In this document: one piece after another, positions 3,392-11,648 of the stretch
Position numbering within the stretch: position 1 is the stretch's first letter
Layout: each line of letters starts with the position of its first letter
DNA from: an uncultured Anaerolineaceae bacterium
GTDB lineage: Bacteria > Chloroflexota > Anaerolineae > Anaerolineales > UBA4823
Assembly: GCA_964606085.1 (NCBI GenBank)
Contig: CAZSFD010000007.1
Coordinates: 27,234-91,233, forward strand
DNA length: 64,000 nt
Reading direction: 5' to 3'
Notes under the pieces: generated by a model
What the model was told of the DNA's origin: nothing
The model's database searches: none
What the model saw: only the letters and a program-made list of their open reading frames with translations
Translations under genes and position numbers: made by a program

Positions 3392-5668
3392 CTACCGATA
3401 GCCATAGCGCGCCATCGCCACCGATTGGATGGTCATTTCGGGGCTGATCTCCATTTCGAGCCAGGCCAGTTCTTGGCGCAGGGCTTCGAGCTGGGTCGAA
3501 TCGACCAGGAAAATATCGGGGTAGAGTACGCCCTTGAAGAAGGGCCTGAACCTGGCACTGCCTGAGAGGGCCTCGAAAACGAGGGTGTCGTAGCTGTGCA
3601 ACACGGTGATCTGTGACAATTCCACCTTGCGCCCACCCTCGGCCCACGAACGCAAGGCCAGCGCCAGCAAACGCGGCATTTCGGCCATCAGGCGTTCGTT
3701 CAGCAGGCGCAAAAGCTGGTCGGGCTTGCGTTTGGCGGCGATGGCGGCGCGCACGCTGTTGGCGGTCAGCCGCCAGTGGCCTTCGGGGGTGGGTTCGACC
3801 CAGGGGGTGAGTTGTGCTTCGATCAACAGGTCGCGGGTTTTGCTTTTCAATTGCAGCAGGCCATCTTCGCTGGCGGTCAGGCACTTGGGCAGCGCCATGC
3901 CATAGTTGAGGCGCGTGATGCCCTGCGGGGGGTGGCTGTATTGGGTCGGGTCGGTCAACAGCAGAAAACGCTCGCCAATCAAGGTTCCTTTGAGACCTTT
4001 TTTGCCGAAGGGCCCGTCGCGCATGGCGCGCTGGCGGGCTTTTTCGTTATCAAATTCGAGCAGGCTGGCGCGGCGGTAACAGGTCATGCGTTCGCGTAAG
4101 CCCGCCCACTCGGTCAGTTCAACGACCACGTTTTGCGGCAGGTCGGTGGCTGAACCGGCGCGCAGGCCGTCGAGCAGCCCCGCCAGCGTGGAGCCGCTTT
4201 CGAGACCGCGATAGACGGATTGGCGGGTAAGCAGGTAGTGGGCGGTATGCTGGTGGGCTTGCTGGCGTTCGGCGTGGCGTTCGATGAAGGCCAATTGCGC
4301 CGGGGTGGCCTGTTCGAGGTAGACGATCAGGTCAAAATTGGGCTGCACCACCCAGGTCGTTTGGCCTTCGGCAGATTGCAGGGAAACCGCCTCTGCCTCC
4401 GCTTTGGCCGGAGCAGAAGCAGCCAGGGTGGGATGGAATACGTCACAGCCCAGTTCGGTCAGGCGCATGGCGGCAACTCGCTCACCATCGCTGGCAAGTT
4501 CGACCACGCCGAGGAAATAAAGCCAGCTGCGCAGCGCCGCTTCGAGCCAGGCACGTTCAAGTTTGAGCCAGGCCGCCCGGCGCTGGGCGCGCCATTTGTT
4601 CTCCTGCTTGTCGTCATTCTCATAGCGCATATAGTAGGGGCGGGAGGAATTGCCATCGAGCGAAAAATATTCGCCGGCGCGGTGGTAGAGCGCCTGTTCA
4701 AAATCATCTACCGAAAAGAATGGATGGCCCTCGAGCGGCAAGGCGCTTAACCCCAGGGTCAGCATCAAACGCCCGGCCATGCGGTGTGTGCCATATTGAT
4801 CGAACCAGCGGCTGGGTTCGGGGATTTCCAACCAGTTGGCTGAACGCACCAGGCCATAGAGCAAAATGCGCACCTGCTCGTGGACGGGCCGGTCGGCAAA
4901 GGTCATCAAGGGTTCGGCCAGCACCAGGCGTTCTTCGCTGGCGCTCATCAACCCCGAACGGGCCAGGGCATGCACCCAGGCTTCGGTGGGGTCGGGCATG
5001 GCAAAGCCATCGAGCGTGATGCCCGTTTCGGGCCAGCGCAGGGTTTTGCGCAGTTTTTTGATCTCGGTGGCGCGGATCAGGCCGGTTTTGGTCAGCAGCA
5101 GGCCGCCGATCTGGTCAACCGCCTGCAACACGCCTAACAGGTCAAGGGCCACAACAGCCGGGCGGCGGAAACTGGTGTGTTCGGGCGTGCCGATGGTGGG
5201 CAGGGTCAACGGGGCAACATTGACATAGCCAGAGACCTGGAGCAGCCGCAGGTCGCTCCAGATGATGTTGGAGGAGTATTCGGTGAAATAGGCGGGGTTG
5301 TATTGGTAATTGCTCAACACCAGGCCGCGTTTGAACAGGCGGCTGACCAGTTCTTTGGCATCGAGCGGCATTTTGCGGGCGTTGGTGGGCAGGTCGCCGC
5401 CGGCGGCAATCAGCCCTAAACCGAGTATCTCGTAATTCGTGGTGCCGCCCATGTAACGCAAGATAGCCAGGGCGTTGCGTTCCCAGGTAGGCAGCGCCTC
5501 GACGGCGGCCTTGACCTTGTAGGGGTCTTTCAGGCCATCCACAACGATTTTGGCCGCCTCGCCTTTCGATATATTCGACCTGCCGCCCCACAGCCGCGCC
5601 ATTGCCTTCACTTCGGGGGCGTTGATCATATCGAGGTAGGTATCGAAATGCAGGCTCGTATCGTCCAT
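3392..5668 (-). CDS. XPB-associated large protein E with C-terminal XPB-NTD / TFIIH p52(Tfb2)-like module
   Basis: 758 aa, last gene of the XPB operon; its ATG directly abuts the stop of the 65-aa ORF. Motifs: WVVQPNFDLIVY, LTRQSVYRGLESG, LPQNVVVELTEW. Size and position recall the about 750-aa neighbour of mycobacterial XPB (from memory). Confidence 0.8.
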   Translation of the reverse strand: MDDTSLHFDTYLDMINAPEVKAMARLWGGRSNISKGEAAKIVVDGLKDPYKVKAAVEALPTWERNALAILRYMGGTTNYEILGLGLIAAGGDLPTNARKMPLDAKELVSRLFKRGLVLSNYQYNPAYFTEYSSNIIWSDLRLLQVSGYVNVAPLTLPTIGTPEHTSFRRPAVVALDLLGVLQAVDQIGGLLLTKTGLIRATEIKKLRKTLRWPETGITLDGFAMPDPTEAWVHALARSGLMSASEERLVLAEPLMTFADRPVHEQVRILLYGLVRSANWLEIPEPSRWFDQYGTHRMAGRLMLTLGLSALPLEGHPFFSVDDFEQALYHRAGEYFSLDGNSSRPYYMRYENDDKQENKWRAQRRAAWLKLERAWLEAALRSWLYFLGVVELASDGERVAAMRLTELGCDVFHPTLAASAPAKAEAEAVSLQSAEGQTTWVVQPNFDLIVYLEQATPAQLAFIERHAERQQAHQHTAHYLLTRQSVYRGLESGSTLAGLLDGLRAGSATDLPQNVVVELTEWAGLRERMTCYRRASLLEFDNEKARQRAMRDGPFGKKGLKGTLIGERFLLLTDPTQYSHPPQGITRLNYGMALPKCLTASEDGLLQLKSKTRDLLIEAQLTPWVEPTPEGHWRLTANSVRAAIAAKRKPDQLLRLLNERLMAEMPRLLALALRSWAEGGRKVELSQITVLHSYDTLVFEALSGSARFRPFFKGVLYPDIFLVDSTQLEALRQELAWLEMEISPEMTIQSVAMARYGYR

Positions 5669-5866
5669 CTACTCGATCACTTTCGGGGTGTGGCCCTGCT
5701 TGAGCAGGCGGTTGAGCAGCGTGTCGAACTGGCCGGGGGCCACGATGGCCACGCAGTCAGACAGGCGCGTGAGCAGATAGACCGCCGTGCGCGGGTCTGC
5801 GTACAGGTCGTCGAGAATGTGGGCGTCGGCTACTTCGATCAGGGGGAGGTTGTCGTGGAGGATCAT
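5669..5866 (-). CDS. 65-aa protein D, stand-alone copy of the terminal beta-alpha-beta unit of the XPB-NTD/p52 module (p8/Tfb5-sized)
   Basis: ATGA overlap with the XPB stop and TAG-ATG abutment with gene E indicate translational coupling. Its sequence LPLIEVADAHILDDL...VAIVAPGQFDTLLNRLLKQGHTP parallels XPB residues NLILVGEDAILITEI...LLVRPGMRGHIKQALLQVGYP. Confidence 0.6.
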   Translation of the reverse strand: MILHDNLPLIEVADAHILDDLYADPRTAVYLLTRLSDCVAIVAPGQFDTLLNRLLKQGHTPKVIE

Positions 5867-7557
5867 GCCTGCAAAACTTCATCTTCATACAAAATTTCGT
5901 ATTTGTAGCCCTGCTCGGTGAGGAAGCGTTGGCGGTTGGCGTTGAAGGTCTGGTCTACGGTGTCGCGGGTGACGATGGTGTAGAAGTGCGCCATCGCGCC
6001 GTCGCTTTTGGGGCGCAGGATGCGTCCGAGGCGCTGGGCTTCTTCCTGGCGGCTGCCGAACGTGCCAGAGATTTCGATGGCCACATTGGCATCGGGCAGG
6101 TCAATGCTGAAATTAGCCACCTTCGAGACGACCAGGCGCTTCACTTCACCGGTACGGAATTTGGCATAGAGCTTTTCGCGCTCGCGCACGGGCGTTTCGC
6201 CAGTGATCAGCGGGGCCTCAAGGGCGGCAGCAACCTGGTTGAGCTGGTCGAGGTAAGTGCCGATGATCAGCAGGTTTTCGTGGGCGTGACGGTTGATGAT
6301 GGCCTTCAGCATCGGCAGCTTGCGCGGGTTGTGGGCGGCAATGGGGTATTTTTCGCGCTGGTCGGCCATGGCGTAGATCATGCGCCAATCATCATCGAGC
6401 GGGATGCGTACCTCGTGGCAGGCGGCGGTGGCGATCCAGCCCTGTTTTTCCATATCTTTCCAGGGCACATCGTATTTTTTGGGGCCGATCAGCGAGAAGA
6501 CATCGCCTTCGAGGTTGTCTTCGCGCACCAGCGTGGCCGTCAGCCCCAGGCGGCGGCGGGCCTGCAACTCGGCGGTGATGCGGAATACCGGGGCGGGAAG
6601 CAGATGCACTTCGTCGTAAATCACCAGCCCCCAGTTGCGGGCGTTGAACAACTCGAAGTGGGGGTATTCGGCGTCGGCGCCTTTGGTACCACGCTTGCGA
6701 TAGGTGAGAATTTGATAGGTGCTGACCGTGACCGGACGGATGTCTTTTTGCAGGCCAGAGTATTCGCCCACCTGGTCTTCGGTGAGGGTGGTTTTATCAA
6801 TCAACTCGCTCATCCACTGGCGCACGGCCACGGTGTTGGGCGTGAGGATCAGCGTGGAGGCCTGTAACTGGTGCATGGCGGCCATGCCGACGATGGTCTT
6901 GCCGGCCCCGCAGGGCAGCACAATCGTGCCACTGCCGCCGCGCGACGAGCCTTCGGCATGGAAGACGGCCGCGGCCTCCTGCTGGTATTTGCGCAGGTTG
7001 AACGGACGCCCGCCCAGCGTAAGCGGGCGCAGTTCGATAGGCAGCGCCTCGCCCACCACATATCCGGCCAGGTCTTCGACCGGGTAGCCGACTTGCAAGA
7101 GCGCCTGCTTGATGTGGCCGCGCATCCCTGGCCTGACCAGCAAGCGCGTGGCATCGAGCTGCTGCCCGATAAAGGGCTGCACCTTTTTATGGCGCACAAT
7201 TTCGGTGATGAGGATGGCGTCTTCGCCGACCAAAATCAGGTTTTCGCCTTCTTTGATCAGCTTCACCCGGCCATAGCGCCCCATGTAATCTTCGATGTCG
7301 CGCACCACATTGCCGGGCAGGTCATACTTGGCATAGTCGCGCAGCCCGCTGACGATCTGCGCCGCCGAAAAGCCTGACGAGGCCGCATTCCACAGCGAGA
7401 GCGGCGTAACGCGGTAGGTGTGGATGTATTCGGGCGATTTTTCCAACTCGGCAAAGCGCGCCAGCACGTCGCGAGCGGGAGTGTAGTTTTCGTTATTGAC
7501 TTCGAGCAGGATGGTTTTGTCACCCTGGACGATGATGGGGTTGGATGCGTTGAACAT
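5863..7557 (-). CDS. xpb: XPB/Ssl2 (ERCC3/Rad25)-type SF2 DNA helicase
   Basis: Walker A CGAGKT, DEVH box (YDEVHLLPA) and the XPB-specific RED motif (TATLVRED) are present. The N-terminal domain has IIVQGDKTILLEV and LPGNVVRDIEDY. Length 564 aa. Confidence 0.9.
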   Translation of the reverse strand: MFNASNPIIVQGDKTILLEVNNENYTPARDVLARFAELEKSPEYIHTYRVTPLSLWNAASSGFSAAQIVSGLRDYAKYDLPGNVVRDIEDYMGRYGRVKLIKEGENLILVGEDAILITEIVRHKKVQPFIGQQLDATRLLVRPGMRGHIKQALLQVGYPVEDLAGYVVGEALPIELRPLTLGGRPFNLRKYQQEAAAVFHAEGSSRGGSGTIVLPCGAGKTIVGMAAMHQLQASTLILTPNTVAVRQWMSELIDKTTLTEDQVGEYSGLQKDIRPVTVSTYQILTYRKRGTKGADAEYPHFELFNARNWGLVIYDEVHLLPAPVFRITAELQARRRLGLTATLVREDNLEGDVFSLIGPKKYDVPWKDMEKQGWIATAACHEVRIPLDDDWRMIYAMADQREKYPIAAHNPRKLPMLKAIINRHAHENLLIIGTYLDQLNQVAAALEAPLITGETPVREREKLYAKFRTGEVKRLVVSKVANFSIDLPDANVAIEISGTFGSRQEEAQRLGRILRPKSDGAMAHFYTIVTRDTVDQTFNANRQRFLTEQGYKYEILYEDEVLQA

Positions 7558-7665: not shown

Positions 7666-9408
7666 TTAAGCATTCATATCCATAATTTCAGGAGTATAGG
7701 CGTCGGCGAATTGGGCGATGGCCTGCTCGAAACGCGGCCAGTGAACTTGCGAGAGGGTGATGGTGCGCAGGGTTGTATCGGGTTGGAAGGGGCAGCGCAG
7801 TTCGGCCAGCGCCAGTCGGAAGGCGTCGAACGCTTCGGCGCTGGGGAAGGTGATGGTGATGGAGGTCTGGCGTTTGAGCGGCAGCACTTGTGGGCCAACG
7901 GGCTGCGCCGGGGCCGGGGGGATTTCTTTGGGGAAGAGGCTTTGGGCGGCTTCGGGAAGCGGCAGGAAGCTGGCTGACAGGTGAGCGGCAATCAGCGGAA
8001 CGCATCCGGCGCTTTCGAGGCCGGCAGCCAGTTGCTCGGCGTGGCGCACCAGGGCCAGCCCCGGGGCGATGCGCTCGGCGATGTGGTCAGACACGCCCGG
8101 CAGGGTGAGATCGCCCTCGAACAGGCCGATATTCTCGTACAGGGTGAACTGGTCGGCGTGGCCGCTCCATTCTTCCAGTTCGGCCAGCACGTTGGGCGGC
8201 AGGTCGCGCCCGCTCATCTGGCGCAGCAGGGCAATCACGGCTAAATCGGGCTGGCGCACCAGTTCGGCGGCCACCAAGTCCTTTTTCAGGCGTAAGATCG
8301 TCACCGAGGCCCCCACCACGCCGCCAGGCTGCGAGATGGTTTCGGTCAGCGGGCGAAGCTGCTGCATCACTTTGGTGGGGTAAATTTCGGCCTCGACGAT
8401 GACATCGAAGTTGGGCTGCACGGTGACGTTGGGCTGCATCGTCTCGCCGCGCATCAGACGCAGGAAGCGCTCTTGCACACGGAAGGCTTTGAGAACGCCG
8501 CGCTCAGGGCGCGCGCCCTCGTAACGGGCGGGGGCATAGGCTACATCCACAAAACGCAGGACAAGCGGGATGTATTCGAGAAAACGCTCGACGTAGCGGC
8601 CTTCCACACGCTCGAAGGCATCGGGGTCGCTTTCGGCGATCGGTTCGCGGTTGAGGTCCCAATCGGTGCGGCCTTCATAGAAGTTATCGTAGCGTTTGGA
8701 CTTATTGCCCCAGCGGTCGGCTTTGATTTTTTCGGGAATGAGGAAAAAAGGGTGCTGCTGCTTCAAATGGGCAATCAGGGCTGCGGTGCTGTACCACACC
8801 CCTGGCTGACACTGCTGCAAGACTTCGAGCAAAAAGCGGCGTACGCGCACAAAGTCAATCGAGGGCATCACACCCACGGCTGAACCGCGCACCGCAAAAT
8901 GATCCAGGCGGCCCAAAATGGCGGGGGTATAAAATTCGTTGCGCGGCGAGGGGTAAGCGCCGCCCGTATTCACTTCGTTGATCAGGATTTCGAGCAGCCG
9001 CTTTTCTTGCTCGGCGGGGGTCAGTTCGAGAAAGGCGTGCAAAACCTTCTCACTGACAGCAATGTAATTTTCAGTGAACGATGGTTCGCTGCTGGAGTAG
9101 CCGCGGTAAGTGCCTTTGACATCGTACCCGGCCAGCCCGGCCAGCCAGGCCAGGTGGTCAATGAAGTCAATCCAGCTTAAGCGCTGGCTGGCGTAAACGG
9201 CGTTGTCGAAGCGCGGTGAGCCGAGGGCTTTGTCGAGGCGGTTGAGGTCGGCCTGGGGAATCTGGTTGGTGCGCGTCATGCGTTTGACGCTGCGCGTGCG
9301 CATGTAATCGAGGTAGATCAGCAAGTCTTCAAGCAGGTCGCGGTCGTTGCTGGCAATGCTCAGGCCGTCAACGGGCATCTCTTCGAGGGCGAGGGGCGGC
9401 TTGCTCAT
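7666..9408 (-). CDS. XPB-associated large protein B with XPB-NTD / p52-like module
   Basis: 580 aa, with ATGA overlap to upstream gene A. Motifs VTVQPNFDVIVE and LPPNVLAELEEW are followed by a beta-alpha-beta tail. No nuclease or NTPase motif was seen. Confidence 0.8.
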   Translation of the reverse strand: MSKPPLALEEMPVDGLSIASNDRDLLEDLLIYLDYMRTRSVKRMTRTNQIPQADLNRLDKALGSPRFDNAVYASQRLSWIDFIDHLAWLAGLAGYDVKGTYRGYSSSEPSFTENYIAVSEKVLHAFLELTPAEQEKRLLEILINEVNTGGAYPSPRNEFYTPAILGRLDHFAVRGSAVGVMPSIDFVRVRRFLLEVLQQCQPGVWYSTAALIAHLKQQHPFFLIPEKIKADRWGNKSKRYDNFYEGRTDWDLNREPIAESDPDAFERVEGRYVERFLEYIPLVLRFVDVAYAPARYEGARPERGVLKAFRVQERFLRLMRGETMQPNVTVQPNFDVIVEAEIYPTKVMQQLRPLTETISQPGGVVGASVTILRLKKDLVAAELVRQPDLAVIALLRQMSGRDLPPNVLAELEEWSGHADQFTLYENIGLFEGDLTLPGVSDHIAERIAPGLALVRHAEQLAAGLESAGCVPLIAAHLSASFLPLPEAAQSLFPKEIPPAPAQPVGPQVLPLKRQTSITITFPSAEAFDAFRLALAELRCPFQPDTTLRTITLSQVHWPRFEQAIAQFADAYTPEIMDMNA

Positions 9409-10790
9409 GGGCGCACCGCCTTGACCACGAAGCCGGCCTTGCGTACGCTCTTCTCCACTTCGTTGGCAAGCCCGGCGGGGAAGGCGACAAACTGATCAGA
9501 CAGGACGATCAGGTTTCCTTTCAGGTCACGTTCGAGCTGCACGCGCAGGCTCAGGTCGCGCACGCGAGCCAGGCGCAGGTTCAGGTGAACGATATTTTGG
9601 CCCCATTTTTCTTCGACCTGTACCATATTCTGCGCAAAGGCCGGGATGTGCTGACACAACCAGGCGGCCAGGGGTGACTGGCGTTCAGCGGGGGTCAGGC
9701 GGCCTAATTTGACCAGGCCAGGCACGGCGATCAGGTTATTGTGTTGCACCTGCAAGGCTGCCAGGCGGTTGATCTGCTCCAGGTCGGCCAGGGGGATGCG
9801 GCGCAAATCCACCAGCGCCGACTGGCCATCAGGGCCAGGCGTAAGGAACTGATCGGGTGTCAGAGCTTCGGCGGGTTTTGCGAATGGCAGCCGGTAATAG
9901 GTGGCGGCGCCCTCTTGCAGTCTTTCGAGCAAGCCCCAATGCCTGCCTGCTTCGCACATTTGGGCCACTGAAGGCATTTGCGCACCAAAGCACCAGGTGC
10001 GCAGCAACGGTTCGAGTTGGATAACCGTTACCCATTCATCGGGCTGCAAGGTTTTTAAGATGTGCGGTATCACTTCAGTTGGGTGTTTGACGGTGGGATC
10101 ATTGGGCAGGATCACCCGTGAAGTGACCTGCCAGGCGCTGCGCTGCCATTCGACCAGCCCTGCGCCAGTAATGGGGCGTTCTCCCAGGTACAGCGTGCCG
10201 GCGACGAGGGTGAGCGCAAAGGGTTCTTTGGGCAATTGGCTCGAAACGATTGGCCCTCCTACCACTTCGAGCAATTTCTGCCGCACAATATTGGCGTTCA
10301 CTTCGCCCTGGGCCTGGCTTTTGTGCGGGTGACGGATGAGCGGCGGCAGGTAAGCGACAAACTCGGGCGGGAAGCGGTAACGCCAGCGTTCCATTTGGAC
10401 GCTTTCACCGCGCTGCTTGACCTCCGCCATCACCAGCACGCCTTTGCGCACCAGGTTTTGCTTGACACAGTCGAAGGTGGGGCGATATTGCTGGGTAAAT
10501 GTGCCGGAATAATACTTTTGATCACTGCGTGCGCTGCCATAGAGCCGCTCGAAGAAACTGATGTCCACTTCTTGCGCTTGAAAGGCGAGCAGGTAGAGTG
10601 TGGCGATTTCTTCATCGGAAAGGGTCTGCATCACCCCATCCAGCCCGATGCTGGTGAGAAAGAAACTCTCGAAGGCGGCGCGTGAGGCGGTCTCTTTTTG
10701 TCCGAAGCCACGCGCCTTGCGAATAGCCTTGATGTCAGCCTCGGCCAACGTTTCGTGGCACATCTGGTTGAGCAAGCGAGAAAGTTCCAT
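9405..10790 (-). CDS. XPB-associated protein A, divergent paralogue with p52-like C-terminal module
   Basis: 461 aa, first gene of the operon, preceded by a near-consensus promoter and an AAGGAA SD. The C-terminal IPAFAQNMVQVEEKWG plus the tail NLIVLSDQFVAFPAGLANEVEKSVRKAGF fit the same module more loosely. Confidence 0.75.
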   Translation of the reverse strand: MELSRLLNQMCHETLAEADIKAIRKARGFGQKETASRAAFESFFLTSIGLDGVMQTLSDEEIATLYLLAFQAQEVDISFFERLYGSARSDQKYYSGTFTQQYRPTFDCVKQNLVRKGVLVMAEVKQRGESVQMERWRYRFPPEFVAYLPPLIRHPHKSQAQGEVNANIVRQKLLEVVGGPIVSSQLPKEPFALTLVAGTLYLGERPITGAGLVEWQRSAWQVTSRVILPNDPTVKHPTEVIPHILKTLQPDEWVTVIQLEPLLRTWCFGAQMPSVAQMCEAGRHWGLLERLQEGAATYYRLPFAKPAEALTPDQFLTPGPDGQSALVDLRRIPLADLEQINRLAALQVQHNNLIAVPGLVKLGRLTPAERQSPLAAWLCQHIPAFAQNMVQVEEKWGQNIVHLNLRLARVRDLSLRVQLERDLKGNLIVLSDQFVAFPAGLANEVEKSVRKAGFVVKAVRP

Positions 10791-10912: not shown

Positions 10913-11164
10913 TTAAAACTCAAGACTGGGGGACTCGTTGCGTTTTTTCTGGCGGTAAACAATGCGTCCGCGTGTCAGATCGTATGGCGACATTTCTACA
11001 CGCACCTTGTCACCCAATAAAATGCGAATGTAATACTTGCGCATTTTACCCGACAGATAAGCCAACACCTCGTGCCCGCTATCGAGGCGGACACGGAATT
11101 GAGTTCCTGGCAGCGCTTCGACGACGGTGCCTTCCACTTGAATTTTATCTTCTTCCTTAGCCAC
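10913..11164 (-). CDS. infA: Translation initiation factor IF-1
   Basis: [70 protein letters not shown] is the canonical IF-1 S1-fold sequence. GTG start chosen. Confidence 0.9.
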
Positions 11165-11197
11165 ACACACCTCCAAATCTTTCTAAATTGAACAGGA

Positions 11198-11395
11198 TCA
11201 CTCCATCGCCTCACGTTGGCGGCGGCGAAGGCGGCGCATGGATTTTTTATCCGAGATGCGACGCAGTTCACTCTTTGACACGAACCAGCGTTTGCGGCGA
11301 ATGGTGCTGAGCACGCCGCTCTTGGCCACCTTCTTGCGAAAGCGCTTGAGAAGTTGATCCTGGCTCTCATTTTGACGAAGTACAACAGTAGTCAC
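11198..11395 (-). CDS. rpsU: 30S ribosomal protein S21
   Basis: VTTVVLRQNESQDQLLKRFRKKVAKSGVLSTIRRKRWFVSKSELRR. GTG 11395 is preceded by AGGAGGTGA. Confidence 0.85.
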   Translation of the reverse strand: MTTVVLRQNESQDQLLKRFRKKVAKSGVLSTIRRKRWFVSKSELRRISDKKSMRRLRRRQREAME

Positions 11396-11648
11396 GCGTA
11401 TCACCTCCTTTCCTGCTGCCCGTAGGCATAAAAAAAGCCCGACCAAATTCGCAGACCCGGTCGAGCCACTTTTTATAAACTTTTCCTGGGGGAAATTTCT
11501 AAACGATGTTTACGCTCCAATCCTAGAGAGTTAATCGTTCCATGAGCCTGCGAATATGCAAAAATTATACCCCAAGCGCCAGATGGTGTCAAAAGCGAAA
11601 TCATTGGGCAGGTAGCTATCAACTTTGCAACCTGCCTGCCCCTTTGCC

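Follow-up and report, generated by a model that had tools for sequence, protein, structure and literature searches.

The window analyzed here is a stretch of 64,000 nucleotides from an uncultured Anaerolineaceae bacterium (GenBank assembly GCA_964606085.1, contig CAZSFD010000007.1, positions 27,234 to 91,233 of the forward strand). Five of its genes, denoted A, B, XPB, D, and E, form one cluster on the minus strand, and the coordinates of these genes and of the features within them are collected in Table 1. The subject of this report is gene D, a small open reading frame (ORF) between the genes for the XPB helicase and protein E, which an initial annotation had compared with p8/Tfb5, the small subunit that accompanies p52/Tfb2 and XPB in the transcription factor TFIIH. 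The assignment of the 564-amino acid (aa) product as XPB is, at the sequence level, unambiguous; it scores 862 bits against the NCBIfam model NF045503 (cut-off 610) and matches the Pfam families ERCC3_RAD25_C, Helicase_C_3 (residues 8-134), and ResIII.

Table 1. Coordinates of the genes of the XPB cluster and of the D-like and p52-like features encoded within them (positions are those of the window).
Feature	Positions	Strand	Description or method
A	9405-10790	minus	461 aa; without a Pfam family
B	7666-9408	minus	580 aa; paralogue with internal D-like module
XPB helicase	5863-7557	minus	564 aa
D	5669-5866	minus	65 aa; free-standing β-α-β-β-α module, p8/Tfb5-like
E	3392-5668	minus	758 aa; p52/Tfb2-like; start abuts the stop of D
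ATGA overlap of D start and XPB stop	5863-5866	minus	read from sequence
XPB residues 104-164, D-like module preceding the first RecA domain	7066-7248	minus	hhalign, D hidden Markov model
E residues 431-529, "clutch" like the XPB N-terminal domain	4082-4378	minus	VIA, Pfam Helicase_C_3
E residues 521-591, predicted D docking site, equivalent of the p52 C-terminal domain	3896-4108	minus	complex prediction, VIA
E residues 681-742, second in-cis D/Tfb5-like tail module	3443-3628	minus	hhalign, VIA
B residues 422-475, internal D-like module	7984-8145	minus	hhalign
A residues 399-460, tail weakly D-like	9411-9596	minus	hhalign

The boundaries of D could be read directly from the DNA and agree with those given by the initial annotation. 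The ATG of D (5866-5864) overlaps the TGA of XPB (5865-5863), and the ATG of E begins at 5668, immediately after the TAG of D (5671-5669). A longer ORF is excluded because an in-frame TGA is found five codons upstream, and no other start codon is possible. The coupling has been kept in most of the loci that were identified by searching with D, where the XPB stop and the D start overlap by 4 nucleotides and the start of E is found approximately 3 nucleotides past the stop of D.

A word-indexed search returned 58 homologues of D that are 65-84 aa in length and 64-94% identical to it; in the few cases where a source is named, it is Chloroflexota or Chloroflexi. In an alignment of 31 sequences, H4, E11, V12, L18, D19, A23, D24, P44, and a C-terminal G-H-T-P are invariant; HxNLPxxEV and GHTPKV are the N-terminal and C-terminal motifs, respectively. 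The comparison of D with its nearest relative (locus L001) gave a nonsynonymous substitution rate (dN) of 0.034, a synonymous rate (dS) of 0.89, and a dN/dS ratio of 0.04. The median ratio for the family was determined to be 0.23, using 1431 pairs with a finite dS from 64 unique sequences. Judged from these patterns of substitution, D is a real gene that is under purifying selection as a protein. The possibility that D is a decaying fragment was considered and rejected on the basis of the dN/dS values and the conservation.

An exhaustive profile search of 1.84 billion representative sequences with D identified 366 proteins at an E-value of 0.001 or lower. Among the 150 matches listed, 2 are repeat-protein artefacts, and the remaining 148 consist of 113 proteins of 55-125 aa, 4 that are shorter, and 31 that are longer. 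Since 113 of the 148 matches have a length of 55-125 aa, the free-standing D-like proteins constitute a sizeable family. An Atlas search for look-alikes found clusters of unnamed small proteins in Chloroflexota, Planctomycetota, and Myxococcota; in one of these clusters (score 0.82), Helicase_C_3 is present in 14% of the members. On the opposite strand, an ATG-initiated ORF of 86 aa (5648-5908, plus) is antisense to all of D and is probably a shadow frame of a GC-rich gene.

The conservation of gene order was determined from two scans. The first, anchored on D and limited to one genome per species, yielded 35 loci, which are mostly from Chloroflexota and chiefly from Anaerolineae, with one labelled Armatimonadota, one Planctomycetota, and one "uncultured bacterium". 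In 30 of the 35 loci the next gene after D is a homologue of E, in 22 the gene immediately before D is XPB, and 13 contain both A and B. The second scan, of metagenomes, was anchored on E and independent of D; 40 of the resulting 49 loci could be evaluated, having the N-terminus of E and sufficient upstream DNA. In 38 of these 40 loci, D is directly upstream of E, and XPB is directly upstream in 14. Moreover, at least 10 genome loci, and many metagenome loci likewise, keep D and E adjacent without XPB nearby. Four genomes in which the D–E pair is unlinked from XPB were checked, and all of them carry a full XPB elsewhere (827-871 bits). Judged by the locus counts of both scans, gene order therefore ties D most closely to E and next to XPB, and the pairing of D with E hardly varies.

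Some loci were found to have other arrangements. In an Anaerolineales metagenome-assembled genome (MAG), the genes for A, B, XPB, and D are followed by an ORF of 93 aa (L007:8239-8517) that corresponds to the Tfb5-like tail of E alone. This ORF matches positions 668-733 of the E model with 88.5 bits, and the body of E is gone. At a Chloroflexota locus (L023:436-7528), D is followed by three tandem, full-length paralogues of E, each of 750-760 aa. At two loci (L028 and L074), XPB is encoded on the opposite strand and downstream of E, in a convergent orientation, and not upstream of D. The neighbors of one D homologue (L017:7953-10400) are a 699-aa N6/N4 DNA methylase and a GH38 mannosidase. Two loci from one MAG (L024 and L035) have a truncated D and a split E; these were treated as a problem of assembly or decay and carry no conclusion.

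In its structural model, protein E has the architecture of p52, with winged helices, a clutch, and a C-terminal module, beyond which the chain is extended C-terminally and finishes with a second Tfb5-like module. The available part of the report by Greber et al. (2019, PMC6422496) describes p52 as a series of winged-helix domains, a clutch that is homologous to the N-terminal domain of XPB, and a p8-binding dimerization module. The AF2 model of E has a mean predicted local distance difference test score (pLDDT) of 83, with values of 53-75 over residues 530-600. When this model was compared with the PDB using Foldseek, the top 18 matches were all p52/Tfb2 chains (E-values of 7e-10 to 3e-5); the p52–p8 crystal structure 6trs was found among the matches, and XPB chains came next. 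Using VIA, residues 69/85-585 of E were aligned along residues 23/34-459 of human p52 with Z of 14-15 over 290-300 residues; the root-mean-square deviation (rmsd) of this alignment is high because of domain flexing. Residues 431-529 of E were aligned with residues 71-163 of human XPB (68/69-165 in other rows) with Z of 16.1 and an rmsd of 1.4 Å over 92 residues, and the sole Pfam match of E is to Helicase_C_3 (residues 440-551, E-value of 6.8e-16). Closer to the end of the chain, residues 682-738 were aligned with Tfb5 (3dom_B) with Z of 5.8 and an rmsd of 2.2 Å over 56 residues. At the level of sequence profiles, E has five matches to PDB sequences at an E-value of 1 or lower, and all are to Tfb2, p52, or Rad25 (0.17-0.46), none being significant alone. 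The Pfam model for Tfb2 (PF03849) is not matched by E. Two distant relatives of E, P0174 and P0192, touch this model with E-values of 1.4e-4 and 2.5e-4, respectively, which are below the cut-off.

The structure of D was predicted with AF2 from the family alignment (pLDDT of 82). The model consists of β1 (9-11), α1 (15-28), β2 (31-34), β3 (39-42), α2 (47-56), and β4 (62-64). The comparison of this model with the PDB using Foldseek gave nothing at an E-value of 0.001 or lower, although many of the weak rows were Tfb5/p8 chains. In a second look using VIA, the top row for D was Tfb5 from the Tfb2C–Tfb5 crystal structure (3dom_B), with Z of 6.8 and an rmsd of 2.1 Å over 54 of 58 residues. A search of 48,161 chains that was independent of Foldseek placed Tfb5 (7o4i_5) second with Z of 6.4 and p8 (6trs_D) tenth with Z of 5.6. 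The model of D also aligns to the C-terminal domain of Tfb2 (3dgp_A, residues 451-508) and to human p8, each with Z of 4.7, and to residues 170-293 of human XPB with Z of 4.8-5.6. A profile made from 114 free-standing members of the D family was compared with 177,635 PDB sequences, and the top five matches are to yeast Tfb5, with E-values of 0.0037-0.0058 and approximately 20 bits. Positions 22-69 of the profile were aligned to residues 8-55 of yeast Tfb5, and the next matches are to de novo TIM barrels (E-value of 0.013). The Pfam Tfb5 model falls weakly on residues 123-153 of XPB (E-value of 0.065), and Helicase_C_3 (PF13625) is weakly touched by 7 of the 114 relatives of D. With its 65 aa, D is not a full Helicase_C_3 domain (approximately 125 residues) and corresponds to the end of this domain together with the stretch that follows it.

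The complex of D with full-length E was predicted using a separate alignment for each of the two proteins and three controls. The interface score (ipSAE) was determined to be 0.79 (0.82, 0.79, and 0.79 for the individual runs), compared with 0.03 for the best of the three controls. Of 157 solved complexes, 116 attain this mark, as do 2 of 215 mismatched pairs. At least 99% of the contacts are common to the runs, and the pLDDT of the partners is at least 88. A confident interface with another protein of the operon, which the initial annotation had proposed to look for, is thus predicted. On E, the interface comprises residues 482-490, 521-540, 544, 548, 562-591, 611-619, and 646, and on D it comprises residues 1-14, 17, 25, 32-36, 39-44, 47-55, and 58-65. 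The predicted site for D is the module of E just past the clutch, which is aligned with the last part of p52, to residue 459. The docking of D onto the extreme C-terminal tails of A, B, or E, as had been suggested, is not what the model gives; D is placed on residues 521-591, and the tail of E (681-742) is unused by D in the full-length model. The interface on E contains 14 conserved columns among 50, compared with 113 of 758 overall (hypergeometric p = 0.01), and 20 of the 30 conserved residues of D are within its interface. D is thus predicted to form a heterodimer with the module of E that is equivalent to the C-terminal domain of p52.

The residues of helix 1 of D that are outside of the predicted interface are L18, D19, L21, Y22, A23, and D24, and this conserved free face would suit a third partner such as XPB. 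That the invariant helix (L18, D19, Y22, A23, and D24) is mostly not used by E would also be in keeping with D functioning mainly as an accessory of XPB, which would bind the helicase directly, for example at module 104-164 or at the second RecA lobe, with the adjacency to E being secondary. The conserved ATGA overlap with XPB favors such a role, and so do the sequence identities within the same loci, which for D (55-92%) are similar to those for XPB (56-87%) and far above those for E (34-59%). At L034, a locus from Planctomycetota, XPB and D occur with no p52-like gene downstream, and in TFIIH p8 also touches XPB, according to the available parts of two reports (PMC7708078 and PMC13024598). 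We nevertheless consider it unlikely that XPB is the principal partner of D, given the loci described above in which D stays with E where XPB is not nearby and given that the prediction of the D–E complex passes its controls. Contacts of D with XPB are in any case compatible with a p8-like role, since p8 contacts both proteins.

Modules that are similar to D were also identified within the other proteins of the cluster. Alignments by eye in the initial annotation had related D to the last part of the N-terminal domain of XPB and to the tails of A, B, and E. When the families were compared with one another using hhalign, residues 4-65 of D were aligned to residues 104-164 of XPB (E-value of 2e-4), which is exactly the stretch that had been named, and residues 1-62 of D were aligned to the tail of E at 681-742 (E-value of 2.8e-4). 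The similarity to the tail of A (399-460) is marginal (E-value of 0.047), with an "ilHenL" motif that is common to both consensus sequences. A relationship to the tail of B is not supported; residues 2-65 of D were aligned to an internal segment of B (422-475, E-value of 3.8e-4). A hidden Markov model made from 206 sequences of D gave 19.4 bits for residues 110-158 of XPB (E-value of 2.6e-7 for five targets), 9.6 bits for residues 686-735 of E, 9.1 bits for residues 437-471 of B, and 4.6 bits for residues 400-454 of A. Pairwise BLASTP of D with XPB, E, and A gave nothing significant, and a short N-terminal BLASTP match, to residues 50-78 of B (E-value of 0.017), was discarded, having no profile support. 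The C-terminal extension of B, approximately 105 aa past the D-like module (residues 476-580, 7666-7991), had been taken for another copy of the module; no profile was found to match it.

In a 301-genome sample of the phylum, the D module was matched in 37 genomes. Small free frames were found in 5 of these (G000, G255, G299, G194, and G227), a tally that depends in part on G227, which is flagged as unpublished; in the rest the module is inside frames of 425-956 aa. In these sister lineages, the gene order is XPB, a p52-like protein of 650-900 aa, and an E-like protein. The closest fused relative of D is the extreme C-terminus of this middle protein (50-54 bits), to which D is 30-42% identical by BLASTP with E-values of 1e-6 to 2e-8. 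The D-like C-termini of the p52-like bacterial proteins stand directly after the Helicase_C_3/clutch domain, and in the E-like proteins of the sister lineages a D-like module likewise directly follows the clutch (35-59 bits). D is therefore a separately encoded copy of the module in which p52-like chains normally end, and p8 stands in the same relationship to the C-terminal domain of p52. The middle proteins were found at L039:5405-7774, L042:6240-8201, L045, L041, L040, L046, and L044; some of them contain a SWIM zinc finger, which in the L039 protein is N-terminal (Pfam E-value of 4e-5).

These fused relatives also raise the possibility that D is the split-off C-terminal domain of such a middle, or X-type, p52 paralogue, which would act in trans to complete the tail of either A or B and would not bind E. 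The X-type middle proteins were found by BLASTP to align to residues 183-476 of B, no fused relative of D is closer than their C-terminus, and the "ilHenL" motif is found in the tail of A. However, only 13 of the 35 loci have A and B together with D, compared with 30 for E, the tail of B has no profile match to D, and in the full-length model the placement of D on E is highly confident. We regard this explanation as improbable.

Several observations weigh against the assignment of D as a p8-like partner of E. The Z-scores of 6.4-6.8 for the alignments of D with Tfb5 are less than 8 and are tied with those for procarboxypeptidase prodomains and subdomains of polyketide synthases, and because of these ties with unrelated ferredoxin-like folds the fold of D alone is not diagnostic. 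The profile signal for Tfb5 is borderline, and the five matches are versions of one yeast protein. Human p8 was not matched by the 114-member profile among the 177,635 PDB sequences, and a narrower profile made from 31 sequences of D did not find Tfb5, with one irrelevant match to PDB sequences at an E-value of 1.1. D has no match in Pfam, NCBIfam, or PADLOC (zero Pfam families at an E-value of 10 or lower), and this includes the Pfam Tfb5 family (PF06331), whose gathering score of 23.5 bits is not reached; 2 of the 114 members of the family touch this model, the best with an E-value of 0.068. The calibration of the ipSAE mark of 0.79 is only rough here, because custom alignments were used. 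The passing of the D–E prediction can also stem from its likeness to solved p52–p8 complexes, and E was the sole partner with which D was predicted. Lastly, there are exceptions to the gene order. Two loci have E without D; at one of these a gene on the opposite strand abuts E (L073), and at the other the first 20 or so residues of E are missing (L079). At L034, XPB and D are followed not by E, but by genes for MarR and RND efflux proteins, and L017 has a homologue of D (107.8 bits) with neither XPB nor E.

Some of these points would be expected if D were a generic small ferredoxin-like protein of unrelated function, such as a regulator or a "spacer" ORF for translational coupling, with a convergent or fortuitous likeness to Tfb5. 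No curated family matches D, its structural Z-scores are shared with unrelated folds, and the E-value for Tfb5 is only 0.004. However, D is homologous at the profile level to modules in XPB and in p52-like proteins, and the strong conservation of its amino acids argues against a mere spacer. It is also improbable that Tfb5 would be at the top of both the sequence and the structure searches by chance, when there are few Tfb5/p8 entries among the 177,635 sequences. We thus consider a generic role to be very unlikely.

Taken together, D is probably a bacterial p8/Tfb5-like subunit of an assembly of XPB with a p52-like protein. The parallel with p8/Tfb5 that was drawn in the initial annotation is strengthened by the p52-like character of E, by the first and second places of Tfb5 in the structural searches and its top position in the profile search, by the linkage of D to E, and by the score of the predicted complex relative to the controls. 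Because the Pfam Tfb5 model does not recognize D, it is classified here as belonging to a bacterial p52–p8 kind and not as a member of the Tfb5 family. Translation of D would be coupled within an XPB–D–E message, and the product would fold as a β-α-β-β-α module that docks on a similarly folded module of E (approximately residues 521-591), which comes after the XPB-binding clutch. Docking of D would complete and stabilize this part of E, as p8 does for the C-terminal domain of p52. In the available part of one report (PMC7708078), the ATPase activity of XPB in TFIIH is described as being stimulated in sequence by p52 and p8. By analogy with TFIIH, the D–E pair would presumably cradle XPB, using the clutch of E and XPB's N-terminal domain, and tune its ATPase/translocase activity. 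We infer the physical binding of D to E, the contact with XPB, and any effect on XPB activity from the predictions and comparisons given above.

A further possibility, which is put forward tentatively and which we regard as somewhat doubtful, is that D is truly homologous to p8/Tfb5 and E to p52/Tfb2. The entire "bottom lobe" of TFIIH (XPB–p52–p8) would then exist in bacteria as a machine encoded by an operon, and in this organism it would have A and B as additional paralogues of p52.

The arrangement extends beyond the Chloroflexota. In a 201-genome sample of the Planctomycetota, the phylum of L034, the D module was matched in 23 genomes, and 10 of the loci were fetched. Six of these consist of XPB, a D-like small frame, and a p52-like gene; one has a D-like frame and a p52-like gene, one has XPB and D only, and in two the module is inside larger p52-like proteins. 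In the window itself, two minus-strand frames are found just upstream of A; by eye, the translation of one (10913-11176) resembles translation initiation factor IF-1 and that of the other (11198-11446) resembles ribosomal protein S21. If these assignments are correct, the XPB cluster is in a housekeeping neighborhood rather than on a mobile island. Nuclease domains were not found among the proteins of the cluster in the Pfam and NCBIfam scans. With PADLOC, A, B, D, and E match no model, and the helicase core of XPB alone touches the models for PbeA-type helicases. The interpretation of the cluster as an anti-phage defense system was rejected, since no protein of the cluster fits a PADLOC model as part of a system.

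The subunits of TFIIH other than XPB had been taken to be missing from bacteria. Defects in the regulation of XPB by p52 and p8 underlie trichothiodystrophy. No description of a bacterial counterpart of p52 or p8 was found in the literature that was searched, the coverage of which leaves out most subscription journals. In the available part of a 2026 review, the roles of bacterial and archaeal XPB are called elusive, and Bax1 is the sole prokaryotic partner that is named (PMC13024598). A bacterial triad of XPB with p8-like and p52-like proteins would provide the bacterial XPB with defined partners that can be tested and would offer a simple, operon-encoded model for the regulation of XPB by p52 and p8. 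Such a triad would also bear on the origin of the translocase lobe of TFIIH. If D and E are true homologues of the eukaryotic subunits, the XPB–p52–p8 lobe would have been inherited from, or be common with, bacteria rather than be a eukaryotic invention.

Among the prokaryotic systems, the archaeal XPB–Bax1 pair is similar in that a prokaryotic XPB has a dedicated partner encoded beside it, according to the available parts of PMC7672443 and PMC13024598. Bax1, however, is a nuclease, and its binding sites are the thumb motif and the second helicase domain, whereas the partners proposed here are p52-like and p8-like scaffolds. The N-terminal region of XPB (Helicase_C_3) resembles D in that the D profile matches residues 104-164, but D represents only the last 60 or so residues of this region and has neither the core of the clutch nor a helicase. 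The C-terminal domain of p52/Tfb2 is similar in that the closest fused relatives of D end p52-like bacterial proteins and in that the model of D aligns to 3dgp_A, but D is a separate gene product and not the end of a chain. The p8/TTDA/Tfb5 subunit of TFIIH (PF06331; PDB 3DOM, 3DGP, and 6TRS) resembles D in being a single β-α-β-β-α module of approximately 65-70 residues; D is likewise predicted to bind a p52-like protein at the module past its clutch, and it is encoded next to XPB. D differs from p8/Tfb5 in being bacterial, in failing the Pfam Tfb5 model, and in having its own invariant motifs. Its proposed partner is a 758-aa protein with an additional Tfb5-like tail in cis, and, unlike in TFIIH, no other core subunits of that complex were seen in the operon of D.

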